NCBI GenBank assembly: GCA_963666485.2
Contig: CAXXUO010000009.1
Location: forward strand, 131,385-163,384
Source: Syntrophorhabdaceae bacterium
GTDB lineage: Bacteria > Desulfobacterota > Syntrophorhabdia > Syntrophorhabdales > Syntrophorhabdaceae
DNA length: 32,000 nucleotides
Direction of reading: 5' to 3'
The position numbers were made by a program, and so were the translations under genes. The notes beneath the pieces are model-generated. The model was not told the origin of the DNA and searched no databases. It saw only the letters and a program-made list of their open reading frames with translations. Shown in pieces: positions 5,579 through 29,321 of this stretch (the first letter of the stretch is position 1; every line of letters begins with the position of its first letter).

Positions 5579-6628
5579 TCAGCTGTTTACAATATTTCTC
5601 CAATCCGTCACCACCGGATCGAAGCCTTTCGCTGTGAGCATTGCCTTGACCTCATCGAAGGTCCGCGGGTCGAAGACCTGGAACTGGCCGTCGTCGTACT
5701 CGGACTTGTCGATGTATCCGCCGACGCGGGTCGAAGACCCGGCCGACATCTTCGTCACGCCGAACTCGAAGATGCGGTCCCGGAATTCGGGCGTCTCCCG
5801 TGTCGAGAGGCTTATCCCGGCCCGGGGGAAGAACAATCGCGCCGCGCACATGATCTTCAGCATCTCCCTGTCGGTAACCTCAATGTAATTATGCTCGTCG
5901 TCGACGACACGCCTCAAGCGCGGGAACGCGAGGCCAAACTCGACGCCCGGGTACTTTCTCTCGAGGTTCCTGATATGCTGGAAAAGGGCGATGATGTCCT
6001 GCCGCCAATCGGTGAGGCCAAGGAGGACCCCCATCGATATGTGGCGCATCCCCGAACGCGCGATGCGGTCCGGGGCCTCGACACGGTAGTCATAGACCTT
6101 CTTCGGCCCGGCAAGGTGAAGCTCGTCATAGCGGGCCCGGTCATACGTTTCCTGGTAGAGTGTCACCCCGTCAACCCCCGCGAGGTAAAGCTCGCGGTAC
6201 TCATTCTCTTCGAGGGGATAGACCTCGACGGCGACGTAGGGGAAATGGCGGCCGGCGATGATGCAGGCGTCCCGGATATACTGCGGCGAAGAATGGAAGC
6301 GCGACTCTCCCGTCAGGATGAGGCAGCTGCGGATCCCGGTCGCGGCGAGCGCGGCGCATTCCCTGTCTATCTCGTCCATCGTGAGCTTGCTGCGCGGAAT
6401 TATCTTTGACGACGCGTGGAAACCGCAATAGACGCATTCATTCTGGCAATAATTGGCTATGTAGAGGGGGGCATACAGGCTGATCGTCCGCCCGAACTGG
6501 CGCCGCGTCAGCTCGCGCGCCGCATACGCCATTTCTTCGAGCAGGCCCCTGTCGTCATACGAAAAAATGCGGCGAATGTCACCGATCGTCAGATGCTCGA
6601 GGTCAATTCCGGACAAACCTTTATTCAT
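5579..6628 (-). CDS. thiH: 2-iminoacetate synthase ThiH (radical SAM)
   Basis: Radical-SAM motif [10 protein letters not shown], about 350 aa, ThiH-like throughout, and the last gene of a thiE-thiS-thiG-thiH array. Confidence 0.9.
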
Positions 6629-7397
6629 CGTAGAGGAACCCCGTGAGCGGCGATGAAGCGCGTGCTATCGACCTTTCTTTTCCCATTTTTGCGAGATACG
6701 CCATCCTGCCTGCTTCAACACCCCGCGCGAATGCCATCGCCATGAGCGGCGGGTCCTCGGCGTCCGCGACGGCGGTATTGGCAAGCACCGCGTCCGCGCC
6801 TATCTCCATTGCCTCGGCGGCATGGGACGGCCTGCCAATTCCCGCATCGACCACGATCGGGACCTCGTTGATCTCTTCTATGAGAACTTCGATAAGAGCC
6901 CTCATCCTGAGGCCCTGGTTGGACCCGATAAGGGAGCCGAGCGGCATGACCGCCGCCGCCCCGGCGTCTACCAGCTCCTTCGCGACATACAGGTCGGGGT
7001 TCATGTACGGCAGGACGGTAAAACCCTCGGCGGACAATATCTTCGTCGCCTTTACCGTCTCCCGGTTGTCGGGCAGGAGGTACCGGCTGTCATTGATCAC
7101 CTCGATCTTGATCCAGTCGCCGTACCCGGCCTCCCGGGCGATGCGGGCTATCCTGACCGCCTCGTCCGAATTTCTTGCACCCGACGTGTTCACCATGATG
7201 GTGGTCCCCTCAGGAATGAAGGAGAGGATGTTCTCATCCGTGTCTTCGAGGTCTATCCTGCGCAGGGCGACCGTCACGAGCTGAGAGCCCGAGGTCAGGA
7301 TCGCCTGTTTCATCGCCTCCTTGTTCCCGAACTTCCCGGTGCCGAGGAAAAAACGGCTTGTAAATTCCCTGCCGGCGATCAAGAGTTTATCTTCCAT
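6621..7397 (-). CDS. thiG: Thiazole synthase ThiG
   Basis: [19 protein letters not shown], the NTSG motif and [13 protein letters not shown] are typical of ThiG. The ATG at 7397 is preceded by GGGAGGGGG and lies 1 nt after the thiS stop. Confidence 0.93.
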
Positions 7398-7398
7398 G

Positions 7399-7599
7399 TC
7401 AGCCCCCTCCCACAAAGGACACCATCTCTATGCGGTCTCCATCGGTGAGGACCGTCAAAGGCCACTGGTCGCTTTTCACGACGCCATCGTTAAGGACAAG
7501 GATCACCCGCTCGGGGTTCGCCCTGCCTGAATAGACGAGCCGGTGGAGGTCCATGCCTTCCGCAATCTCCGTCTGCCTGCCGTTCACTGTGATCTTCAT
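7399..7599 (-). CDS. thiS: Sulfur carrier protein ThiS
   Basis: 66 aa, MKITVNG...[14 protein letters not shown] with a C-terminal Gly-Gly. Its ATG at 7599 overlaps the thiE stop as ATGA. Confidence 0.9.
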
Positions 7600-8189
7600 T
7601 GTGCTGCCTTCCTGATACGTTTCAATAATGCCGGCGCGTCGGTGCATGCCCGTACGACGCCGATCGTTTTTGCCCCTGCCTCGAGGACATCGTCGATATT
7701 CGTAAGGTCGATGCCGCCGATCGCGACTGCCGGTATGTCGAGGTTCTGCGCCGCTTCCCTGACGTACGCAAGGCCGACCGCGGGCCTGCCCGGCTTTGTC
7801 GGCGTCGGGTAGACGGGGCCGGTCGAAATGTAATCCGCTCCGTCCGCGATCGCCTGCCTGCCCTGTTCGAGATTATGCGTTGTCTTGCCGATGATCATAT
7901 CGCTGCCGACGATCGCGCGCGCGTCCTTCGTCGACATATCCTGCCCGATGTGGACCCCGTCCGCCCCCGCTTTTACTGCGAGCCGCGCGTCATCGTTCAG
8001 GATGAAGATAAAATCCCTGACCTTTTTGTATTCCACGATCTCGCGCGCCTTCTCGAGAACGGCACTTTCGTCGCCCGTCTTGTCGCGCAACTGCACGATC
8101 GCGGCCCCATCGTCAACCGCCTGCTTTAAGTCGTCCACGGACGCAGAAATGACATAAAGGTCATTTCTGAATGGTAATCTTCGCGTCAT
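7596..8189 (-). CDS. thiE: Thiamine-phosphate synthase ThiE
   Basis: 197 aa, LYVISAS...IVQLRDK...GADGVHIGQDM...GADYISTGPVYPTPTKP is typical of ThiE. There is no obvious Shine-Dalgarno sequence upstream of ATG 8189. Confidence 0.9.
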   Translation of the reverse strand: MTRRLPFRNDLYVISASVDDLKQAVDDGAAIVQLRDKTGDESAVLEKAREIVEYKKVRDFIFILNDDARLAVKAGADGVHIGQDMSTKDARAIVGSDMIIGKTTHNLEQGRQAIADGADYISTGPVYPTPTKPGRPAVGLAYVREAAQNLDIPAVAIGGIDLTNIDDVLEAGAKTIGVVRACTDAPALLKRIRKAAQ

Positions 8190-8259: not shown

Positions 8260-8697
8260 TCAGCCGCCGGAAAGCATCATGAAGCGCGGGCATTCCTGGA
8301 GCTCCGCTTCCTTATGGCCTTTTTCTTCCTTGTAACACAAGATATCGACCAGGTTATTGTAGCTCTTCACGTGCCAGCCGTCGATCAGCCTCATGACCGT
8401 CGGGTCGCCCCAATCCCAGGTCTTTGCCTCCGTAATCTCGCATACCCTCGATCTCCTGTTCTCGAGGTTCAGCACCCTGAGCACCAGTTTCGGCGCGCCG
8501 TTCGACCCGGCCTTGCCGGCCCAGGGGTCCAGGTACTCGTTCACCGCCTTGAAGTACTGTGAGATGCGGTCATTCTGTTTTTCGGAATGGTCCTGCAGGA
8601 CAATGTGGCGGTGCCGCCCCCTGTACACGCCGCATTCCGTGCACCTCTCATGTGTAAAGGGACATGTTGCGAGACATGCTTTCGATTCTTCTGCCAT
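8260..8697 (-). CDS. Hypothetical 145-aa protein: N-terminal four-Cys cluster and C-terminal Gly-Gly (candidate ubiquitin-like sulfur carrier)
   Basis: GAAGGAG lies 7 nt upstream of ATG 8697. Four-Cys cluster C8-x3-C12-x6-C19-x2-C22. The protein ends ...ECPRFMMLSGG-stop. I recognise no family. It sits between the E1-like gene and thiE. Confidence 0.7.
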   Translation of the reverse strand: MAEESKACLATCPFTHERCTECGVYRGRHRHIVLQDHSEKQNDRISQYFKAVNEYLDPWAGKAGSNGAPKLVLRVLNLENRRSRVCEITEAKTWDWGDPTVMRLIDGWHVKSYNNLVDILCYKEEKGHKEAELQECPRFMMLSGG

Positions 8698-8739
8698 ACG
8701 TCTACTCCTTCGAAAGTTTTTTATCTTTTATATTCATAT

Positions 8740-9909
8740 TCAGTGGCATACGCCTCCTGGCAATCCGCCTTCCTTCAATTCCCTGATAGTCGGGTTCGTG
8801 CCGCACAACGGGCATTCGGGGTTCCTCGTGACCTCGATCGTCTTATGGAATGCCTCCAACGCGTTGTAAACATAGAATTTTCCGATCATCGGCTTGCCGA
8901 GGCCTGCCGCGACCTTCAGTGCTTCAACCGCCTGTATCAGGCCTATTTGACCCGGGACGACCCCCAGGACGCCTGCGTCGCTTCAGGTAGGGACGAGGTG
9001 CTCCGGCGGCGGCTCCGGGAACATGCACCGCAAGCACGGCCCGCCCGATGCCGGGTGAAAAACGCCGGCCTGTCCGTCAAACGCGACGGCGCCCCCGAAA
9101 ATGTAGGGCTTGCCTGTAAAAAAACAGGCGTCGTTAAGGAGGAATTTCGTATTGATGCTGTCCGTCCCGTCAATGACGATATCGAACCCTTCGATAATCC
9201 GATATACGTTTCCCGCATCGACCCGCTCATTGAACAGGACGGTCTTTATATGGGGATTGAGCCGCCTTATGCCTTCTTCGGCGGATTCTGTCTTCAACCT
9301 TCCCACGTTTTCCGACAAATGGAGGACCTGGCGGTTAAGGTTCGAGATCTCCACCCGGTCAAAATCGGCTATGCCTATCGTTCCCACCCCGCATGCTGCG
9401 AGATAGAGCAGTGCCGGGCACCCGAGCCCGCCGGCCCCGACGACAAGCATCTTCGCGCGGGAGAGCCTGCGCTGCCCGTCCTCGCCCATCCCCTTGAGGA
9501 TGATATGCCTGCTGTAGCGCTCGTATTCATCCTGGCTGAAAAAACCCGCTTCATTGACAACCGGGAAGCCCCTCTGGGCCCACGCCGATATGCCCCCGGT
9601 CAGCGAGTAAAGGTTCCGGTAGCCCATCCTCTCGAGCTTCGACAAAGCTTTCAGCGACCTCACACCAATGGCGCAGTACACGATAATAGGCCTTGCGCGA
9701 TCGTCAGGAAGTTTGCCTTCGCTCCCTTCGATCTCATCGAGAGGAATATGGACCGCGCCTTTCAGGCAGCCGCGCGTCGTCTCCCATTTCTCACGGACGT
9801 CGATAATGACAGGAGGGTCGGATGATTCGGCAAGGCGCCGGGTCTCTTCGGGAGAAATTTCGCCCCTGTTTGCCGGCCCGCCGCTATTCCTCGAATTGCT
9901 GTCTTTCAT
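8740..9909 (-). CDS. Rhodanese-ThiF/MoeB E1-like adenylyltransferase with in-frame UGA (probable selenocysteine) at codon 309
   Basis: - N-terminal rhodanese domain with active-site loop YCAIGVRS.
- ThiF/MoeB Rossmann domain (VVGAGGLGCPALLYLAACGVG...DFDRVEISNLNRQ).
- The TGA at 8985-8983 replaces the conserved loop Cys.
- The frame stays open for 80 more codons (SDAGVLGVVPGQIGLIQAVEALK...NPECPLCG...GVCH) to TGA 8742-8740.
- The two CxxC pairs (CLRC and CPLC) straddle the UGA.
- The ORF track stops at 8983. Confidence 0.8.
8951..8968 (-). promoter_or_regulatory. Candidate bacterial SECIS hairpin
   Basis: The mRNA folds as CCUGGG-GGUCGU-CCCGGG: a 6-bp stem (one G-U pair) with a 6-nt GGU-containing loop. 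The stem starts 17 nt after the U of the UGA at 8985. Confidence 0.5.
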
Positions 9910-9913
9910 AGCT

Positions 9914-10552
9914 TTAACCTCGCTTTGTGTCCGCTTTTGCGCTCAGGCAGAACACCGCCGTTCGTGCCAGAAGGTTCGGAAACAGGGCCGCCGGCCGCCT
10001 TGCCCCCGCGTAGCGAGCGTCTTCGATCCGCACCCTGCGCGCCCGGCAATACCGCACAAAATCATCGATACTCAGGAAATGCAGGTTCGGCGTGTCGTAC
10101 CACTCATGGGGCAGTGCCGGCGTGACGGGCGCCCGGCCCCGGAAAAATATCTGGAACCGTGAGGAGACATGCGCAAAGTTGGGTATACCGACAATGACTT
10201 TCCCGCCCACTCTCAAGGCCTCCTTAAGTACGGTATCCGGATTCTTGACCTGCTGGAACGACTGGTTCAGGATCACGTAGTCGAAGGAGTTGTCGCCATA
10301 TTCGGCCAGGCCCGAGTCTATATCGTCATGGAAGACGCTGAGCCCTTTCACGACGCATTCGAAAATGGCGTGGCTGTCGATCTCAATGCCCTGCCCCCTG
10401 ACACCTTTTCGCCGCACGAGAAGGCCCAATAATTCACCCGTGCCGCACCCCAGGTCGAGGACGGTGGAACCCGGTTTCACCATATCGACGATTAGCCGGT
10501 GGTCGATCCGGCCGCCGCCGTTCAAATTTTCATGCGGCCCGTCTGCCATCAT
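9914..10552 (-). CDS. metW: Methionine biosynthesis protein MetW
   Basis: SAM-methyltransferase-like fold motif [12 protein letters not shown] plus the MetW-specific tail ([42 protein letters not shown]). It overlaps the metX stop by 23 nt. Confidence 0.9.
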
Positions 10553-11696
10553 AAACCTTCTTCAAGAAATGCGTGTACAAATACGTCTGCTCGTCAAACT
10601 CCACGAGAAACGCGTCGTGCCCGTAATGTGACGTCAATTCGCAGTATGTTGCGTCCGCGCCGGCCATCTTGCAGGCCTTCACGATCTGCTGCGACTGGTA
10701 CGGAGGGTACAGCCAATCGGACGAAAAGGCGATGATAAGGAGCTTGGTTCCTACGCCTTCCAGGAGCTTATGCAAGGGTTTGCCGTTCGCCGCGGCAAAG
10801 CTGTCAACCGCCTTTGTTATATACAGGTATGAGTTCGGATCGAAGCGGTTGATGAAGTTATACCCCCGGTAATGCAGGTACCCTTCCACCTCGAATTCCG
10901 GGCTGAATTTGAACGGCTGTTTTTTGTCCTTCACGCGCCGGCCGAACTTCTCGTTCATCGAATCGTCGCTCATGTACGTGATATGGCCGATCATCCGCGC
11001 GACGCTCAGGCCCTTGTCGGGAAGATCGAGGCCGTAATAATCCCCGTTGTTCCAGTTGGGGTCCGCCATGATCGCCTGCCTTCCCACCTCGTTGAAGGCT
11101 ATCTGCTGGGGAGTGTGCTCCGCGGTCGTCGCGATAAGGATGGCCGATGCCACATTTTCCGGGTACGACACGACCCACTGAAGGGCCTGCATCCCACCCA
11201 TGGACCCGCCTGCCACCCCAAGGAGCCTGTCTATCCCGAGATGGTCGAGAAGCCGCTTCTGGGCGTTGACCATGTCCTTGATGGTGACCACGGGGAATTC
11301 GAGACCGTACGGCCTTCCCGTGAGCGGGTTTTCCGAGGAGGGCCCCGTCGAGCCCCTGCACCCGCCCAGGATATTGCTGCAGATAACGAAATAACGGTCC
11401 GTATCGAAGGCACGGCCCGGACCGATCATATCATCCCACCAGCCGGGATTTGTATCGCCTTCATGATAACCGGCCGCATGTGCATCGCCCGTCAGCGCAT
11501 GGAGGATGAGAATAGCATTCGAGGCTTGTGCATCGAGCCTGCCGTACGTCTCGTATGCGAGAGTGACAGGCCCGATGCTTTCTCCGGATTCCAGTATAAA
11601 CGGCGCAGGAAAGTGACCAAAGGTAAAGGACTGTGCTCTTGCCGGCCCGATACCATCGTGCTGACCTGCTTCAACTTTCTCTGCCCTGAGGTTCAT
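10530..11696 (-). CDS. metX: Homoserine O-acetyltransferase MetX
   Basis: 388 aa alpha/beta hydrolase with [12 protein letters not shown] (nucleophile elbow), [19 protein letters not shown] and a C-terminal HDAFL, all typical of MetX. AGGAG lies 4 nt upstream of the ATG. Confidence 0.92.
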
Positions 11697-11712: not shown

Positions 11713-13032
<1,320 letters not shown>

Positions 13033-13111: not shown

Positions 13112-13558
13112 CTAAATGTAGTACATCATAGAGTCTTGCTGCCCTTTGAGCTGCTGCATTTCAACAAGGGTAGCAATTGAATAATCGTTGAGGGTGTTCC
13201 GGATAGCGGCGCCCAGCTTGTTCCAGATCTCACGGGTGACGCACACGCCGGATTTGTCACAAACTGCTGTATTCTGCACGCAGTCAACAAGGGTACAGGG
13301 CCCTTCAAGTATGGTGATAATATCGAGGATCGTTATCTGATCGGCCGGCCGGTCGAGGAGGTAGCCCCCTTTTCTGCCGCGCTGCGCCTTCACGATGCCG
13401 CCTTTGTGGAGGGCCGAGAATATGTGCTCGAGGTACTTCTCGGAAACGTTCTGCCTTTTCGCGATATCGGAAAGGAACACGGGGGTGCCGTTCGTACCGT
13501 GCACCGCGAGGTCTATTATCGCCCGCAACCCGTATCTTCCTTTTGTCGATATCTTCAC
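13112..13558 (-). CDS. Rrf2 family transcriptional regulator (IscR/CymR-like, probable Fe-S binding)
   Basis: MKISTKGRYGLRAIIDLAVHG... winged-helix N-terminus. Cys cluster C-x4-C-x6-C-x5-C (GPCTLVDCVQNTAVCDKSGVC). GTG start at 13558 with AGGTGA 4 nt upstream. Confidence 0.9.
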   Translation of the reverse strand: MKISTKGRYGLRAIIDLAVHGTNGTPVFLSDIAKRQNVSEKYLEHIFSALHKGGIVKAQRGRKGGYLLDRPADQITILDIITILEGPCTLVDCVQNTAVCDKSGVCVTREIWNKLGAAIRNTLNDYSIATLVEMQQLKGQQDSMMYYI

Positions 13559-13585: not shown

Positions 13586-13614
13586 AGTATAGATATCTTG
13601 TTGACATGTGTCAA
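13586..13614 (-). promoter_or_regulatory. Candidate sigma70 promoter for rrf2-metYXW... (minus strand)
   Basis: On the minus strand: TTGACA (13614-13609), a 17-nt spacer, then TATACT (13591-13586). The predicted transcript start is about 20 nt upstream of the rrf2 GTG. Confidence 0.5.
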
Positions 13615-13690: not shown

Positions 13691-14752
13691 ATGAAAGTCG
13701 GCAACGATCACAATAGAGAAAAACAGGTCATCGGCAAGGATGAGGTTCTGGGGCTCCTCAAAAGCGAGGGTGACGACATCGGCCTGCTGTACGCCCGCGC
13801 GGACAGGGTCCGCCAGGAGCACATGGGGGACGAGGTGTATGTCCGCGGCATTATCGAATTCTCCAACCTGTGCGCGAATGACTGCCTCTATTGCGGCATA
13901 CGGGCCTCGAATTTCAATGTCAACCGCTATTCAATGAGCATCGACGATATCATGCAGACCGTTGGCTCTTTCGAGCGAATGGGGCAGACGACGGTAGTGC
14001 TGCAGTCCGGGGAGACCCCGGGCTTAAGCGACGAGGATATCGGGAGGCTCATCAGGACGATCAAGTCAGAGACGTCCCTTGCCGTTACGCTCTCCGTCGG
14101 CAATCGTTCACGGGAGGTATACCGGTACTGGAAAGAATGCGGAATGGACAGGTACCTCATCCGTTTCGAGACGACAGACCGGCGGTTGTTCGCCCGCCTG
14201 CACCCGGATTGCTCGTTCGACGAGCGGGTCGCGTGCCTGCATATCCTCAAGGACCTCGGCGTACAGACGGGGAGCGGGTTCATGATCGGCGTCCCGGGCG
14301 AGACCCTCGACGTGCTTGCGGACAACATACTTTTTTGCAGGGAACTCGACCTCGACATGATAGGGATCGGGCCGTACATACCGCATCCCGACACACCTCT
14401 TGCCGATGAACCGAACGCGTACGCGGGCAGTGAAGAGACCTTCTACAAGGCCGTTGCCGTGCTGCGGCTCGCGAACCCCGATGCCCATATCCCGGCGACC
14501 ACCGCGTTTGACGCGGTGTTTCCCGGCGTCGGCAGGAATCTTGCCCTCACGCGCGGGGCCAACATTTTTATGCCGAACAACACGCCGGTCGAGCACAGGA
14601 AGGATTATCTCCTCTACCCGGGGAAGCCGTGCGTCGATGAGAACGCGGACCAGTGCGTTGCCTGCGTCATGATGCGGATCGAGTCGATCGGGCGAAAAAT
14701 AGGGGCGGGGCCGGGACACTCTTTAAAAAGCGCTAATAAAAGGCTACAATAA
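13691..14752 (+). CDS. HydE-like radical SAM protein (HydE/BioB/PylB family)
   Basis: CANDCLYCGIR radical-SAM motif. Long colinear similarity to HydE as I remember it (VYVRGIIEFSN.C...CLYCG.R, VVLQSGE, VTLS.G, DRYL.R.ET, GSG.M.G.PG.T...L..D..F....D.DM.GIGP.IPHP.TPLA). Confidence 0.75.
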   Translation: MKVGNDHNREKQVIGKDEVLGLLKSEGDDIGLLYARADRVRQEHMGDEVYVRGIIEFSNLCANDCLYCGIRASNFNVNRYSMSIDDIMQTVGSFERMGQTTVVLQSGETPGLSDEDIGRLIRTIKSETSLAVTLSVGNRSREVYRYWKECGMDRYLIRFETTDRRLFARLHPDCSFDERVACLHILKDLGVQTGSGFMIGVPGETLDVLADNILFCRELDLDMIGIGPYIPHPDTPLADEPNAYAGSEETFYKAVAVLRLANPDAHIPATTAFDAVFPGVGRNLALTRGANIFMPNNTPVEHRKDYLLYPGKPCVDENADQCVACVMMRIESIGRKIGAGPGHSLKSANKRLQ

Positions 14753-14762
14753 CCTGTATGCA

Positions 14763-14783
14763 TTCAGGCCGGTACGGCCTGAA
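14763..14783 (+). promoter_or_regulatory. Intercistronic stem-loop between hydE-like and nifU
   Basis: ttcaggccg-gta-cggcctgaa: a 9-bp perfect stem with a triloop. No T-run follows, so it is not a canonical terminator. It may be an RNA stability or processing element. Confidence 0.3.
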
Positions 14784-14808
14784 ATTCACAAAGGGAAAGG
14801 AGCACATT

Positions 14809-15645
14809 ATGTGGGAATATACGGACAAGGTAAAAGAGCATTTCCTCAACCCGAAGAATGCCGGGGAGATCGAGAACCCCGATGCCGTGGCTGAAGTGGG
14901 CTCCATCGCCTGCGGGGACGCCTTGAAACTGACCATGAAGCTCGACGAGAACAAAAAGATCGTCGACGCGAAGTTCAAGACCTTTGGATGCGCCAGTGCT
15001 ATCGCGTCCGCGTCCGCGCTGACCGAACTCCTCAAGGGGAAAACGATCGAAGAAGCGGAAAAGATAACCAACCAGGAGATAGCGGATTACCTTGGCGGGC
15101 TCCCCCCTGAAAAGATGCACTGCTCCGTCCTCGGCCAGGAGGCCCTCGAAAAGGCGATCGAGAACTACCGGGGCGTCTCCCATAAGATGCCCGAGGAAGT
15201 GATCGTCTGCGCCTGCTTCGGCGTGACCGACGGCGAGATCGAACGGGCCATCCGGCAGAACCACCTCACCAGCGTCGAAGAGGTGACAAACTATACGAAA
15301 GCCGGCGGCGGGTGTGGGAACTGCCATGAGAAGATACAGGCCATTATCGACCGCGTCTATGAAACGAAAGAAAGACAGGCCGAGCCGGTGGAGCGGCCGA
15401 AGCTCTCGAACCTCCAGAAGATCCGTATGATCGAGGAGACGATCGATCGCGAGATACGCCCGTCGCTCAAGCACGACGGCGGGGACATAGAGCTCGTCGA
15501 CGTGGTCGGCAACAGGGTGCTCGTCGCGATGCGCGGTGCGTGCGCCACGTGCCAGGCGTCCCAGGCGACGATGAAAGGGTTCGTACAGGGGAAGCTCCAG
15601 GAATTTGTTGCACCGGAGCTCGTCGTTGAGGAGGTGGCATCATGA
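14809..15645 (+). CDS. nifU: Fe-S cluster assembly scaffold NifU (IscU-like N-domain, central [2Fe-2S] domain, Nfu C-domain)
   Basis: N-terminal GSIACGDALKL...FGCASAIASAS...MHCSV (IscU Cys triad). Central CACFGV...GGGCGNC. C-terminal DGGDIELV...GACATCQAS. AAGGAG lies 6 nt upstream of ATG 14809. Confidence 0.9.
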   Translation: MWEYTDKVKEHFLNPKNAGEIENPDAVAEVGSIACGDALKLTMKLDENKKIVDAKFKTFGCASAIASASALTELLKGKTIEEAEKITNQEIADYLGGLPPEKMHCSVLGQEALEKAIENYRGVSHKMPEEVIVCACFGVTDGEIERAIRQNHLTSVEEVTNYTKAGGGCGNCHEKIQAIIDRVYETKERQAEPVERPKLSNLQKIRMIEETIDREIRPSLKHDGGDIELVDVVGNRVLVAMRGACATCQASQATMKGFVQGKLQEFVAPELVVEEVAS

Positions 15646-16823
15646 AAACGATCTACCTTGACAATAATGCGACAACGATGGTGGCGCCGGAAGTGGTCGA
15701 GGAGATGCTGCCCTACCTGCACGAGTATTACGGCAACCCCTCGAGCATGCACACGTTCGGCGGGCAGGTCGGCCGCAAGATAACCGAGGCGCGCCAGAAG
15801 ATCGCCTCGCTGATCGGGGCGGAGTTGGACGAGATCATCATCACGAGCTGCGGGACGGAAAGCGACAACACCGCGATAATGTCGGCGCTCGCGAACAACC
15901 CTGCAAAGAACCACATCGTGACGAGCAGGGTCGAGCATCCCGCAGTAAAGGTTTTGTGTGAACATCTCGCCCAGAAAGGGTACCGGGTCACGTTCATACC
16001 GGTCGATGCGGACGGCCGTCTCGACATGAACGAGTACGAGGCAAGCTTAACGCCGGATACCGCGGTCGTGAGCATCATGTGGGCGAACAACGAGACGGGC
16101 GTTATATTCCCCGTTGAAAAGGCAGCCCGCCTCGCCCGCGATAAAGGCATCCTCTTTCATACGGACGCGGTCCAGGCCATCGGGAAAATTCCCGTCAACA
16201 TGAAACAAAACGCGATCGACATGCTCTCGCTTTCCGGCCACAAACTCCATGCACCGAAAGGCGTCGGCGTGCTCTACGTCCGCAAGGGAACGAAGTTCTC
16301 GCCGTATTTGATCGGCGGGCACCAGGAAAAAGGGCGCCGGGGAGGGACGGAGAATGTCCCGAGCATAGTGGCCCTCGGCAAGGCGTGTGAGCTCGCCGCA
16401 GCCAACATGGAAAAGGAGAACACGTATGTCAGGGACCTGCGCGACAGGTTTGAGAAAGGTCTGTGCGCCGCAATACCCAGCTGCAAAATAAACGGAACGA
16501 CGGAAGAGCGCCTTCCCAACACCCTCAATATCAGCTTCGAGTTCATCGAAGGCGAAAGCATCCTGCTTCTCATGGACCAGTTCGGCATCTGTGCGTCATC
16601 CGGGTCGGCCTGCACATCGGGCTCCCTGCAGCCGTCCCACGTCCTGCGGGCGATGGGCGTCCCCTACACGATGGCCCACGGGTCCGTCCGCTTCAGCCTC
16701 AGCGTCTATAACACGGCCGAAGAAGTCGACACCGTCATCAGGGAACTGCCGGCGATAATCGAGAAACTGAGAGTCCTCTCCCCGTACTGGGCCACATCGC
16801 AGGGGGCATGCGCGACCGCCTGA
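15642..16823 (+). CDS. nifS: Cysteine desulfurase NifS
   Basis: IYLDNNATT, the PLP-lysine motif SGHKLHAPKGVG and the active-site loop SSGSACTSG. ATGA overlap with the nifU stop. Confidence 0.92.
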   Translation: MKTIYLDNNATTMVAPEVVEEMLPYLHEYYGNPSSMHTFGGQVGRKITEARQKIASLIGAELDEIIITSCGTESDNTAIMSALANNPAKNHIVTSRVEHPAVKVLCEHLAQKGYRVTFIPVDADGRLDMNEYEASLTPDTAVVSIMWANNETGVIFPVEKAARLARDKGILFHTDAVQAIGKIPVNMKQNAIDMLSLSGHKLHAPKGVGVLYVRKGTKFSPYLIGGHQEKGRRGGTENVPSIVALGKACELAAANMEKENTYVRDLRDRFEKGLCAAIPSCKINGTTEERLPNTLNISFEFIEGESILLLMDQFGICASSGSACTSGSLQPSHVLRAMGVPYTMAHGSVRFSLSVYNTAEEVDTVIRELPAIIEKLRVLSPYWATSQGACATA

Positions 16824-16835
16824 AAGGATAACCGG

Positions 16836-26283: not shown

Positions 26284-27384
26284 TTACCGGGACGATCCGG
26301 TAATGATCCCTCCGCCGAGGACCAATTCGCCGCGGTACAGAACCACGGACTGGCCCGGTGTTATTGATTCCTGGGGTTCTTTAAAGCATAGCGCCAACGA
26401 TCCATCGTCCCGGAGGTCTGCCACGCATTGCGCCGGAGGCGCGGTTGACCGGATCTTCGCATGAATTACACCATCCGGCCATTCGGGGAAAGGTACTAAC
26501 CAATTGACATTTTCTGCAACAAGCCCGCGGCTCATCAATTCCTCTTTCGGCCCCGCAACGATCTCATTCCCGGCGGCATCGATACGGATCACGTAATAGG
26601 GCTCTTTGAGCCCGGCAAGGCCGAGTGCCCGGCGCTGGCCTATCGTGTAGAATGCAACGCCGCGATGCTTCCCGATGATCTTGCCCGCCGTGTCGACTAT
26701 GTTGCCTGCCCGGGGCGTTTCTTTCAGCAAAGGGGTGTAGTCTGTGAATTCAAGGAAATCCTGACTTTCTCTTTTTTCGAGATACTCCCCGAAACCCGCT
26801 TCGAGCGCGAGCGCCTTCACATCCTGTTTGCTAAATTCACCAAGAGGAAATAGAACCTGTGAAAGCTGGTCCTGCGACAGACGATAAAGAAAATACGACT
26901 GGTCCTTGGACTTGTCGGTCCCGCGCAAAAGGGTATACCGGCCCAATGCGGCATCGCGTCTGACGCGGGCATAATGGCCCGTCGCAAACAGGTCGAAAGG
27001 AATACCGCTTGTCCGCGCTTTTTCGATGAGAGAACCAAATTTTACCCGTGAATTACAAACAACACAGGGATTGGGCGTTCTCCCGTCTGTGTACTCGGCG
27101 CTGAAATAATCGAGGACGACACTGTCATACTCTGCACAGAGATCTACGACAAAATGTTCGATGCCGAGCCCGGCCGCCGCTTTTTTCGCATCTTCAATAT
27201 CAGATGCTTCGCCGGGACCGTAACATCCGCTGCGTACCGGATCGCAGGCCATGGAGCCGTCCCATATCTTCATCGTCAGGCCAATGATGTCATACCCTTT
27301 TTCCTTGAGGAGGTATGCCGTTACCGTCGAATCGATGCCGCCGCTCATGCCCACGGCGACCCTTTTACCCGAGGTCATCATCAT
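26284..27384 (-). CDS. mnmA: tRNA 2-thiouridine(34) synthase MnmA
   Basis: PP-loop VAVGMSGGIDS, catalytic cysteines (NPCVVCN and the later Cys), ATGHYAR and DQSYFLY motifs. 366 aa. Confidence 0.92.
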   Translation of the reverse strand: MMMTSGKRVAVGMSGGIDSTVTAYLLKEKGYDIIGLTMKIWDGSMACDPVRSGCYGPGEASDIEDAKKAAAGLGIEHFVVDLCAEYDSVVLDYFSAEYTDGRTPNPCVVCNSRVKFGSLIEKARTSGIPFDLFATGHYARVRRDAALGRYTLLRGTDKSKDQSYFLYRLSQDQLSQVLFPLGEFSKQDVKALALEAGFGEYLEKRESQDFLEFTDYTPLLKETPRAGNIVDTAGKIIGKHRGVAFYTIGQRRALGLAGLKEPYYVIRIDAAGNEIVAGPKEELMSRGLVAENVNWLVPFPEWPDGVIHAKIRSTAPPAQCVADLRDDGSLALCFKEPQESITPGQSVVLYRGELVLGGGIITGSSR

Positions 27385-28201
27385 TCCCGTTCAGCGGAGC
27401 GTTCATGCTGCCTGTCCGGTATCCCTTGAGGTCGAGAGACACATACGTAAAGCCGAAACCAGCGAGTTTATCGGCTATGTCATTTCTGTATTCGAGGACG
27501 GTCGGCAGGTCGTTCGGCTCAACCTCGATGCGGGCCGTGTTTCCCTCGTGCCGGACACGTACCTGTGATATCCCCAGGCTCCTGATGAATGCCTCGGAAA
27601 GCTCTACCCTCTTCAACCGGTCAGCTGTGATTGCGGTACCGTACGGAATCCGCGACGCGAGGCACGCCTGGGCGGGCTTGTTGTGGGTGGGAAGTCCGAG
27701 TTCCTCCGACAGCCGCCTGACATCATTTTTCGACAACCCGGCTTCGAGGAGCGGGCTTTGAACGCCGGCTTCGAGACACGCCTTCCTTCCGGGCCGGAAG
27801 TCCTCGAGATCATCGACATTGGAGCCTTCAAGGATATGGGTAAAGCCCTCTTTCGTGATGACGTCCCGTATGGTCTTGAACAGTTCCGTCTTGCAGTGAT
27901 AGCAGCGGTCGGGGTTATTCGCGATATAAGCGGGGTTGTCCATTTCGACACCGTTGACCACGAGAAGGCGTGCCCCGAACGACCGGGCCAACGCCAGTGC
28001 CTCGTTCTTTTCCGCCTCAGGGTATGAAGGCGAAACCGCGGCAACGGCAACGACGTTCTCGCCTCCCAGGCAATCAAGGCTCGCCTTCAGCAGGAAGGTG
28101 CTGTCGACCCCGCCGGAAAACGCAACGGCCGCTTTTCCCAGGGACCTTATGATCCCCTGTAATTTCTCATATCGTGTATGTAATCCCTTTTCATCAGGCA
28201 T
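27365..28201 (-). CDS. LarE-like PP-loop ATP-dependent sulfur transferase (TIGR00268-type)
   Basis: PP-loop AFSGGVDS. CYHCK (CxxC) plus ACLASRIPYG. About 278 aa. The mnmA start overlaps its stop by 20 nt. No larA, larB or larC in the window. Confidence 0.8.
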   Translation of the reverse strand: MPDEKGLHTRYEKLQGIIRSLGKAAVAFSGGVDSTFLLKASLDCLGGENVVAVAAVSPSYPEAEKNEALALARSFGARLLVVNGVEMDNPAYIANNPDRCYHCKTELFKTIRDVITKEGFTHILEGSNVDDLEDFRPGRKACLEAGVQSPLLEAGLSKNDVRRLSEELGLPTHNKPAQACLASRIPYGTAITADRLKRVELSEAFIRSLGISQVRVRHEGNTARIEVEPNDLPTVLEYRNDIADKLAGFGFTYVSLDLKGYRTGSMNAPLNGNDDDLG

Positions 28202-28325
28202 GACAAATATTTATCTCCTCGCGAGGCACATCACAACGAGGAAGATATCACAAACAGCGTCCCCATACAAATCGGGACGCCGTTCTCTATCTCCTTACTC
28301 CTTACTCCTCACTATCCCCATTCGC

Positions 28326-29321
28326 TCATATAGGAATATCGGACGCCCCCGCGGATTCGAGCCCGCCAAGGATCCCTTCGAAAAGGGCGGTGGACAGGTA
28401 GCGCTCACCGGCATCCGGCAGGACGACGACGATCCTTTTCCCGGCATTTTCGCGTTCATTGGCGAGCTTCACTGCCACGTGCGCGGCGGCCCCGCATGAT
28501 ATGCCGCTCAATATGCCTTCCTCCCGGGAAAGGCGGCGGGCCATCTCTATGGCTTCTTCGTTGCTCACCGTCTCGATGCGGTCGACAAGGGAGAGGTCGA
28601 GGACCTTCGGCACAAAGCCCGCCCCGATACCCTGGATCTTGTGAGGCCCGGGCTTTAATTCCTCACCATTCCTGGTCTGGGTCAAAATGGGAGAATGTAT
28701 CGGCTCGACTGCAACAGACATGATCTTTTTGCCCCTGGTCAGCTTAAAATACCTGCTGACCCCTGTAATCGTTCCGCCGGTCCCCACGCCGGAAACGAAA
28801 GTGTCCATATCCCCGTCCGTGTCGTTCCACAGTTCAACGGCGGTTGTCGCCTCATGAATGGCCGGGTTTGCGGGGTTCTCGAACTGCTGGGGAAGAAAAT
28901 AGCGCGACGGGTCGCTCTTCGCGATCTCTTCGGCCTTTGCAACAGCCCCCTTCATGCCTTTCGCACCCTCAGTAAGGATGATATTGGCACCGAGGACCCT
29001 CAACACCTTGCGCCTCTCAAGCGACATAGTCTCCGGCATCGTCAGGGTAACCTTATAGCCCCGCGCTGCACCCACGAATGCGAGGGCGATCCCCGTATTA
29101 CCCGATGTCGGCTCGATTATCTCCATGCCCGGTTTCAACCTTCCGCTCTTTTCCGCATCCCACACCATGGCTGCGCCTATCCTGCATTTCACGGAATAGG
29201 AAGGATTTCTCCCTTCCACCTTGGCGAGGACAACAGCCCTTGCATTGCCGACAACTTTATTCAGCCTGACAAGCGGTGTCCTGCCAATCGAAAACGAATT
29301 ATCGTCAAATATATTTCCCAT
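28326..29321 (-). CDS. cysK: Cysteine synthase A (O-acetylserine sulfhydrylase)
   Basis: IGRTPLVRL, the PLP-lysine context [21 protein letters not shown], and GTGGTITG. Confidence 0.92.

Follow-up and report, generated by a model that had tools for sequence, protein, structure and literature searches.

A 32,000-nt stretch of contig CAXXUO010000009.1 (assembly GCA_963666485.2, Syntrophorhabdaceae bacterium), hereafter the window, carries on its minus strand an unannotated gene, designated X. An earlier note, prepared from the letters of the sequence, suspected its 145-aa product to be a new ubiquitin-like sulfur carrier with an extra metal-binding N-terminal domain. We followed up this suggestion with an entirely computational analysis of X, its homologues and their genomic surroundings. 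The description of the gene itself is accurate. The open reading frame (ORF) begins with ATG, has the sequence GAAGGAG 7 nt upstream of it, and is separated by an intergenic gap of 42 nt from the stop codon (8740-8742) of a gene for an E1-like adenylyltransferase (E1). The protein ends with ...ECPRFMMLSGG, that is, with a free Gly-Gly (GG) directly before the stop codon. The strand, which the note did not give, is minus.

Gene X is embedded in an array in which all genes lie on the minus strand, in the order Rrf2, metY, metX, metW, rhodanese-E1, X, thiE, thiS, thiG and thiH (Table 1). The GG-ending ThiS mentioned in the note is also present, on the minus strand and with a match to PF02597. A sequence scan placed a near-consensus sigma-70-like promoter just before the Rrf2 gene, without terminator-like sites between any two genes from there to thiH. 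Rfam searched at gathering thresholds gave no match in the whole window, and no thiamine pyrophosphate riboswitch or other RNA element accounts for the 70-nt gap before thiE. The thiE-thiS-thiG-thiH and met genes appear to share transcription from this sigma-70-like promoter.

Table 1. Features of the X operon and of gene X in the window
Feature	Positions	Strand	Basis
Gene X, 145 aa, unannotated family, free Gly-Gly end	8260..8697	(-)	ORF and homologues; stop codon 8260-8262
Ribosome-binding site GAAGGAG, 7 nt 5' of ATG	8705..8711	(-)	direct sequence reading
C-terminal tail of X, RFMMLSGG, residues 138-145; proposed E1 adenylation/thiocarboxylation site	8263..8286	(-)	conservation
Beta-grasp-like core of X, residues 70-137, with EAKxWDWxDP motif	8287..8490	(-)	pLDDT ~90; Foldseek matches to PB1, ubiquitin, SUMO
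Linker helix and conserved PWAG motif of X, residues 43-61	8515..8571	(-)	helix 43-56 in model; P58 invariant in close homologues
N-terminal Cys/His knuckle of X, residues 8-31 (C8, C12, C19, C22, H29, H31), putative, accessory	8605..8676	(-)	motif CPFx4CxECxxYRGRH; pLDDT 45-64
Sigma-70-like promoter TTGACA-17-TATACT, near-consensus, 5' of Rrf2 gene	13586..13614	(-)	sequence scan
Rrf2-family regulator, operon head	13112..13558	(-)	tblastn and Pfam labels
metY	11713..13032	(-)	Pfam labels of orthologous genes; middle out of frame in assembly
metX	10530..11696	(-)	Pfam labels of orthologous genes
metW	9914..10552	(-)	Pfam labels of orthologous genes
Rhodanese + ThiF/MoeB E1-like adenylyltransferase, 389 aa	8740..9909	(-)	PF00581 and PF00899, NF006444
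thiE	7596..8189	(-)	translation, TMP-TENI, orthologous loci
thiS, 66 aa, ends SFVGGG	7399..7599	(-)	PF02597, E 4e-10
thiG	6621..7415	(-)	translation, orthologous loci
thiH	5579..6628	(-)	translation, orthologous loci

As judged by sequence comparison, X represents a new family, which we describe here, and could not be assigned to the ThiS/MoaD sequence family. The first search retrieved 13 close homologues with 49-91% identity; organism labels, available for three of them, point to Syntrophorhabdaceae or 'Deltaproteobacteria' metagenome-assembled genomes (MAGs), and all three are named 'hypothetical'. Searching 1.84 billion cluster representatives with a profile yielded 79 proteins, 57 of them with E <= 1e-10, and a second, word-indexed search with a broader profile returned 93, none of which carries a Pfam domain or an informative name. 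Representative genomes of GTDB contain 22 X loci, all in MAGs, from Syntrophorhabdaceae/Syntrophorhabdales, Dehalococcoidales/Chloroflexia, Desulfomonilaceae, Syntrophaceae and unclassified 'delta proteobacteria'. With about 80-90 clusters, all from uncultured anaerobes, the family is rare and unannotated. In agreement with the note, which could not place the protein in any known family, X has no match in Pfam or NCBIfam even at E <= 1 and none in PADLOC, and the best hit of its profile among PDB sequences has an E-value of 2.9. Scans of all 93 members against Pfam, NCBIfam and PADLOC gave nothing meaningful, only weak zinc-ribbon-like noise (Ribosomal_L32p, Sina RING; E > 0.004), and none of the 93 matches PF02597, PF14453 or the ubiquitin families. 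The profile-profile comparison that the note had recommended came out negative: hhalign of the X-domain profile against a ThiS/MoaD alignment returned a probability of 0.4%, i.e. no relationship, indicating that X is not a divergent ThiS. The family was not described in the texts covered by a full-text literature search, in which an unnamed family is hard to find and could have been described earlier without a name.

Conservation within the family was evaluated in an alignment of the 93 sequences, comprising 62 long and 31 short forms. The most conserved chemical feature is the GG terminus. It is present in 88 of the 93 members, and in none of them is it followed by further residues; the five sequences lacking it include three which stop inside the conserved ...PRFM tail and two which break off earlier in the domain. 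Among the 14 close homologues GG is invariant. The complete tail, P137-R-F-M-(M/L)-L-x-G-G, is ~90% conserved in the 93 sequences, with P137, R138, F139, L142, G144 and G145 each conserved in at least 89%. Upstream of it, A91 and W94 are invariant and lie inside the near-invariant motif E-A-K-x-W-D-W-x-(D/N)-P. By contrast, there is no invariant cysteine: C86, the sole frequent cysteine within the core, is found in 75 of the 93 members (81%). Thus, of the two elements for which the note had suggested checking invariance, the GG terminus holds up across the family and the cysteine cluster does not.

All four cysteines of the N-terminal cluster C8-x3-C12-x6-C19-x2-C22 noticed earlier are present in the window protein. 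At the family level the conserved set is rather of the Cys3-His kind, C12-P-F-x4-C19-x-E-C22-x2-Y-R-G-R-H29, since C8 occurs in the Syntrophorhabdaceae clade only (16 of the 62 long forms), and the whole module is missing in the 31 short forms, which are about 70-107 aa long. The spacing also differs in the L025 and L026 subgroup (C-x7-C-x2-C-x7-C; L001-L038 denote 38 comparison loci fetched for this analysis). X does not resemble beta-grasp [2Fe-2S] ferredoxins, in which cysteine loops that bind the cluster are inserted into the core, as its Cys motif lies outside the core, in the optional N-terminal module. We regard the knuckle as a putative Zn or Fe-S site in an optional accessory module, for which docking and regulation are possible roles. 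The approximately twofold size of X compared to ThiS or MoaD is explained by this optional knuckle and the linker helix, which precede a core of ~75 aa, the size of ThiS or ubiquitin.

The distribution of cysteines bears on the possibility that X acts like SufE, CsdE or TusA, as a desulfurase partner or persulfide acceptor that would receive sulfur from NifS onto an N-terminal Cys or C86 and pass it on, with the E1 being a mere neighbour. A precedent for such a neighbour exists in the CsdA-CsdE-CsdL/TcdA trio of Escherichia coli. A NifS-type desulfurase is indeed frequently encoded near X, directly adjacent to it in L015 and L020, and the conserved Cys cluster of the window protein and the prevalence of C86 would suit this role. 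Nevertheless, the family has no invariant Cys and one third of it is devoid of the N-terminal cluster. Two E1-adjacent short forms, in L015 and L033, are entirely free of cysteine; the short forms of L032 and L034-L036, likewise encoded next to the E1, have one non-conserved Cys each. Because some E1-adjacent members are Cys-free, neither a Cys persulfide nor a metal site can be the family-wide function, and persulfide acceptance as a general mechanism of X was rejected. As it also leaves the near-universal GG terminus and the conserved tail unexplained, we hold this explanation to be quite improbable. The sole universal reactive feature of X is the free GG carboxylate, the group that E1 enzymes adenylate.

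The fold of X was modelled with AlphaFold2 using the 93-sequence alignment, and the models were compared to PDB with Foldseek. In the full-length model residues 1-40 are of low confidence and residues 70-140 have a predicted local distance difference test score (pLDDT) of ~90. Modelled separately, residues 66-145 reach a pLDDT of 89.6 and a predicted template-modelling score (pTM) of 0.78. In the numbering of the domain model, its elements are beta(7-12), beta(17-21), a short helix(23-28), beta(36-40), beta(43-44), helix(48-60), beta(65-72) and a tail; this beta-beta-alpha-beta-beta-alpha-beta order is that of beta-grasp and PB1 domains. Nearly all Foldseek matches are to beta-grasp proteins, including PB1, ubiquitin, SUMO, FAT10, ubiquitin-like (Ubl) domains, LC3 and the bacterial Ubl 8tyx, with E-values of 0.014-0.3, a best probability of 0.99 and template-modelling (TM) scores of 0.50-0.56 over ~80 columns. 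The models thus give moderate support to a beta-grasp-like fold class for the C-terminal ~75 aa, the fold for which the note had proposed a check, even though the statistics of the individual matches are weak.

Gene neighbourhoods were compared in 39 sequence sets (the window and the 38 fetched loci), which collapse to about 30 distinct places; the counts are drawn from fragmentary MAG contigs. A ThiF/MoeB E1 gene is encoded within 10 kb of X in 18 of the ~30 distinct loci and is the directly upstream gene in 13, compared to ~1-2% expected for a random gene, a rough estimate from the few ThiF-family genes per genome and not a computed value. Two E1 subtypes are involved, the rhodanese-E1 in deltaproteobacterial lineages and a PRK12475-type E1 in Dehalococcoidales, and the gene orders differ accordingly. 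In Syntrophorhabdaceae and relatives the usual order is Rrf2-metY-metX-metW-(NifS)-rhodanese-E1-X-(ThiI-like)-(BioB-like)-thiE-thiS-thiG-thiH, and metY-metX-metW lie upstream in the window, L001, L004, L006, L008, L017, L025 and L026. The Dehalococcoidales/Chloroflexi loci contain a CymR-like Rrf2 gene (in L012 the best score is CymR, E 2e-38, below the curated cut-off), the PRK12475-type E1 without rhodanese, an EF2568-type cysteine desulfurase, optionally a MoaD-like protein of 89 aa with a GG end, X, a CysK-like gene and CysE. A third arrangement, in L015/L016, consists of HcyBio, NIL-ferredoxin, LarE-like PP-loop, ThiI-like, rhodanese-E1, short-form X, NifS and MnmA genes, and in L032-L036 the rhodanese-E1 is directly followed by a short-form X. 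The co-occurrence with E1 proposed in the note is therefore strong, spanning two E1 subtypes and two phyla, but X is not always the neighbour of an E1: one clade of short forms is solo, and in L004 X is relocated directly upstream of the Rrf2 gene.

These neighbourhoods allow the possibility to be weighed that X is functionally unlinked to the E1, a hitch-hiker in sulfur operons where ThiS is the sole E1 substrate. The canonical ThiS encoded two genes downstream of the E1 in the window is an alternative or additional substrate, so that the adjacency of X and the E1 alone does not identify X as the substrate; moreover, the place of X within the cluster shifts (L004), several genomes have X by itself, and it has no homology to known carriers. 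On the other hand, X is repeatedly associated with E1s of two unrelated subtypes, across different phyla and gene orders, and also in loci without a ThiS/MoaD-like gene: X is the sole small GG-ending ORF near the E1 in L013, L015, L020, L025 and L032-L036. Because the level of GG conservation would also be left without explanation, we give little credence to the hitch-hiker scenario.

The other constant companion of X is the Rrf2 regulator, which neighbours it as often as the E1 does and directly adjoins it in L004, L010, L018 and L024, where the E1 is not adjacent. X could accordingly be a metal or Fe-S sensor, a co-regulator acting with a CymR/IscR-like Rrf2 repressor, or a non-covalent modulator of the E1, reporting sulfur or iron status; the Cys3-His motif, followed by the basic YRGRH patch at the N-terminus, would agree with such a role. 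However, short forms devoid of the metal motif adjoin the E1 with no Rrf2 gene nearby (L015, L032-L036), the invariance of GG and the tail has no place in this explanation, and scans of the family libraries detected no DNA-binding or known regulator domain in X. A sensor or regulatory function seems to us unlikely.

Beyond Rrf2 and the E1, the recurrent partners of X are NifS-type desulfurases, MetY/MetX/MetW, CysK/CysE, ThiI-like and LarE-like PP-loop proteins, sulfate-assimilation genes, BioB-like radical S-adenosylmethionine (radical-SAM) proteins and ThiS/G/H. The gene after X is variable and can be thiE, a ThiI-like, BioB-like or CysK-like gene (the latter directly downstream in L012, L020, L021, L023 and L024), NifS or, in L025, a gene for a 335-aa protein. 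Because Rrf2, E1 and NifS are constant and the downstream gene varies, X belongs to a sulfur-mobilising module and not to one acceptor pathway. In the MAG of L004 there is also an X paralogue, L010, with the order Rrf2-X-ThiI-like and with a sulfate ABC transporter, two genes of the 3'-phosphoadenosine 5'-phosphosulfate (PAPS) reductase family and a gene with GTP_EFTU/adenosine 5'-phosphosulfate (APS) kinase domains as neighbours. The ThiI-like PP-loop protein starts 8 nt after the X stop codon in L001 (L001:8447-9439) and 7 nt after it in L010 (L010:8455-8735). The L001 protein, 330 aa long, contains PF02568 and NFACT-R_2, the match being limited to the PP-loop part of ThiI. The short gaps suggest translational coupling and make the ThiI-like protein a candidate acceptor enzyme.

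The partner E1 of the window combines an N-terminal rhodanese domain (PF00581) with a ThiF domain (PF00899), and its best NCBIfam match is NF006444 'MoeB', at 419 bits versus a cut-off of 449. Its gene contains an in-frame TGA (8983-8985, minus strand) in the motif PT-U-SDAGVLG. The same TGA is found in 11 distinct loci (the window, L004, L006, L015/16, L017, L025 and L032-L036) and aligns with a TGC or TGT Cys codon in five orthologous loci (L001, L008, L020, L021 and L026), and the reading frame is conserved 3' of it. Simple folding of the RNA downstream of the TGA did not reveal a significant hairpin resembling a selenocysteine insertion sequence (SECIS; z = -0.21). Consequently, the case for selenocysteine (Sec) rests on the TGA/Cys alignment, from which the partner E1 is probably a selenoprotein. 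MoeB-type selenoproteins are already a known family (PMC1088965), which shares with the E1 genes described here the TGA at a Cys-aligned position; new is the recurrent pairing of a Sec/Cys E1 subgroup with X, seen in 11 distinct loci with TGA and 3 with Cys.

Taken together, the evidence tips somewhat towards X being an E1-activated, ubiquitin-like C-terminal carrier of a new family, in which the GG carboxylate would be converted to a thiocarboxylate. Starting from what the analysis shows (the gene, the family, the GG terminus, the fold class and the neighbourhoods), we infer the chemistry by analogy with ThiS/ThiF, MoaD/MoeB and Urm1/Uba4. The rhodanese-E1 encoded 42 nt upstream would adenylate Gly145 of X. 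The persulfide of a NifS-type cysteine desulfurase, borne on the rhodanese Cys of the E1, would then attack the acyl-adenylate, and the active-site Cys of the E1, here probably Sec, would resolve the acyl-persulfide to yield X-COSH. The latter may serve as a protected sulfide donor to locally encoded sulfur-inserting enzymes, which would vary by locus. Candidate acceptors are MetY, an O-acetylhomoserine sulfhydrylase, in Syntrophorhabdaceae, the CysK-like protein in Dehalococcoidales and ThiI-like or LarE-like PP-loop ATPases elsewhere. Which enzyme is the acceptor is far less certain than the carrier role of X. Multi-carrier E1s are known, namely, TtuC, MoeZ and UbaA, and the same E1 probably also charges the ThiS of the operon for ThiG/ThiH. 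The interpretation of the earlier note is thus supported, and all of its refutation tests that can be run in silico gave favourable outcomes, with some corrections. Among these, X has no detectable sequence or profile relationship to ThiS/MoaD, and the extra N-terminal domain is an accessory lacking from one third of the members and of the Cys3-His kind at the family level.

A probable source of persulfide is encoded next to the operon. Divergently from the Rrf2 promoter, positions 13691-18942 on the plus strand encode a radical-SAM protein, NifU (NifU_N + BFD + NifU), a NifS-type desulfurase, a hexapeptide-repeat protein and a CdhD-like protein, the radical-SAM/NifU/NifS part spanning 13691-16823. 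This cluster is also conserved beside the operon in L004 and L006. In the source genome, whose operon has no NifS gene between metW and the E1 as found in related loci, this cluster probably supplies the persulfide.

Several observations weigh against a thiocarboxylate carrier. Structurally, Foldseek gave no match at E <= 0.001 and TM scores of only ~0.5, a borderline fold match, and its top 50 include no ThiS or MoaD structure; in sequence, X shows none of the similarity to ThiS/MoaD or ubiquitin families that was sought with profiles (see above). The tail that follows the last strand has 8 residues, modelled as a short helix of lower confidence, compared to about 4 residues in ubiquitin. Apart from the ThiS of the window operon, the MoaD-like protein of L012 and L021 is a possible true substrate of the E1. 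Seven short-form loci (L027-L031, L037 and L038) have no E1 within 10 kb in the available flanks, and in four long-form loci (L010, L018, L019 and L024) there is an Rrf2 gene and the E1 is not nearby. No ORF in the 39 loci contains the JAMM motif HxHx(6-9)[ST]xxD, and no JAB/MPN Pfam family was found among the called genes. Finally, a minority of members (P0035, P0036, P0063, P0067; L028:9941-10231; L038:9959-10222) end with ...GC or ...GGC, as in PVFMLHGGC, APFYMGC and PRFMMLNGC, and the two Cys-ended X genes whose context was examined, those of L028 and L038, are solitary, lacking an E1 within 10 kb. A Cys that follows GG is reminiscent of the CysO-cysteine adduct; alternatively, it may be the sign of a subgroup whose function has diverged.

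The absence of JAMM from the loci fits a carrier made with a mature GG and counts against a strict cycle of the CysO/HcyS type. CysO and HcyS are established in thiocarboxylate-dependent synthesis of cysteine and homocysteine (Hcy), respectively, and their pathways need a JAMM/Mec hydrolase to cleave the amide between carrier and amino acid and so release Cys or Hcy. Other parts of the genome may encode such a hydrolase, or the thiocarboxylate may be consumed in a self-releasing reaction, as in ThiS/ThiG, MoaD/MoaE and TtuB/TtuA.

Lack of processing enzymes also bears on whether X is a ubiquitin-like modifier conjugated to target lysines, as in SAMP modification or urmylation, possibly in addition to carrying sulfur. 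In SAMP and Urm1 systems one E1 serves both sulfur transfer and conjugation, and a beta-grasp-like fold with a GG terminus encoded beside an E1 is what such a modifier would look like. Nonetheless, E2, E3 and JAB/JAMM deconjugase genes are found in none of the X neighbourhoods, no defence-system Ubl model of PADLOC gives a match, which separates X from conjugation systems such as SAMP, Bil and the CBASS Cap2 type, and the surroundings consist purely of metabolic sulfur genes. A conjugation or defence role of X is unlikely, and lysine modification in particular appears very improbable.

Compared to known systems, a carrier role would place X closest to ThiS/MoaD (PF02597) with ThiF/MoeB, with which it shares a beta-grasp-type domain of ~70-80 aa, the free GG, an E1 neighbour, a cysteine desulfurase and rhodanese domain in the system, and a location in a thiamine operon. 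It differs from them by the lack of sequence or profile similarity, much stronger internal conservation (EAKxWDWxDP, PRFMLLxGG), the longer tail, the optional Cys3-His module with linker helix and the presence of a bona fide ThiS in the same operon. A second set of relatives comprises CysO-CysM-Mec of Mycobacterium tuberculosis, HcyS-HcyF-HcyD-MetY of Wolinella and MetO-MetM-Mec-MoeZ of Streptomyces, in which, as in X loci, a GG carrier and an E1 are encoded with a pyridoxal phosphate (PLP) enzyme of the cysteine-synthase or O-acetylhomoserine-sulfhydrylase type and with sulfate-assimilation genes. X takes the place of the carrier in such operons. Those carriers, however, are members of the ThiS/MoaD family and depend on JAMM/Mec, and several have to be trimmed of residues that follow GG, whereas X is made with a mature GG. 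The carrier/E1/PLP-enzyme operon type was described previously (PMC1779556), and the thiocarboxylate pathway of MetO is covered in the GapMind 2026 preprint. The third comparison is with TtuB-TtuC-TtuA and Urm1-Uba4-Ncs6, where an E1, which in Uba4 includes a rhodanese domain, converts a Ubl to the thiocarboxylate on which a PP-loop ATPase then draws; the ThiI-like gene immediately after X in L001 and L010, and the ThiI-like, LarE-like and MnmA genes beside X in L015, are reminiscent of this arrangement. Unlike TtuB and Urm1, X belongs to another sequence family, its PP-loop partners are not orthologues of TtuA/Ncs6, and they are found in some loci only. As far as we could find, a metal-binding N-terminal domain on a sulfur carrier has no described counterpart in the literature.

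Ubiquitin signalling is regarded as having its evolutionary root in E1-activated ubiquitin-like sulfur carriers, and the bacterial carriers of this type characterised so far all belong, to our knowledge, to the ThiS/MoaD family. If the carrier role of X is correct, a second, sequence-unrelated beta-grasp family with a GG terminus would widen the prokaryotic Ubl repertoire, with E1s that often contain Sec and with genes placed in Cys, Met and thiamine operons. It would also fill a gap in the annotation of sulfur assimilation in poorly studied anaerobes (Syntrophorhabdaceae, Dehalococcoidales), add a player to their insertion of sulfur into amino acids and vitamins, and offer a system that could show how one E1 discriminates between two carriers or is shared by them. 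A more far-reaching version, which we consider doubtful, is that X is an independently evolved carrier dedicated to the Sec-E1 and serves strict anaerobes as the common currency of protected sulfide, or even selenide, from which Cys, Met, thiamine and biotin synthesis and the thiolation of tRNA are supplied, with the metal-binding N-terminal domain coupling its loading to Rrf2. Such a combined carrier and signal would be without counterpart among ThiS, MoaD and Urm1.

Additional observations concern individual genes and loci. In the window, the middle ~160 nt of metY (~12370-12532) are out of frame and contain several stops, with both ends sharing one frame. The interruption is either an assembly error or a pseudogene, the orthologues in L001, L004, L006 and L008 being intact; metY as a second selenoprotein gene was rejected, since the stretch is frameshifted and has several stops instead of one lone TGA. 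A second sulfur group, encoded at 26302-29312 on the minus strand, consists of MnmA, a LarE-like PP-loop ATPase and a PALP (cysteine-synthase-type) gene; neither a second copy of X nor a small GG-ending ORF is found near it. One Syntrophorhabdaceae MAG contains two X paralogues which flank the rhodanese-E1 (L026:9965-10396 and L026:12404-12862; metW-X1 ... E1-X2), and both copies carry the C-x7-C-x2-C-x7-C N-terminal motif. The L012 locus (L012:1687-12143), from a 'delta proteobacterium' MAG and on a contig shared with L022, has the gene order of Dehalococcoidales MAGs. Downstream of its X operon are genes for YqeB, which functions in the maturation of selenium-dependent molybdenum hydroxylases, XdhC, HcyBio (PF01837), NifS, NifU and an AIRS-domain protein that may be SelD-like, and its EF2568-type desulfurase is a relative of the selenocysteine lyase SclA. 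These surroundings hint at a possible link between the X module and selenium metabolism.

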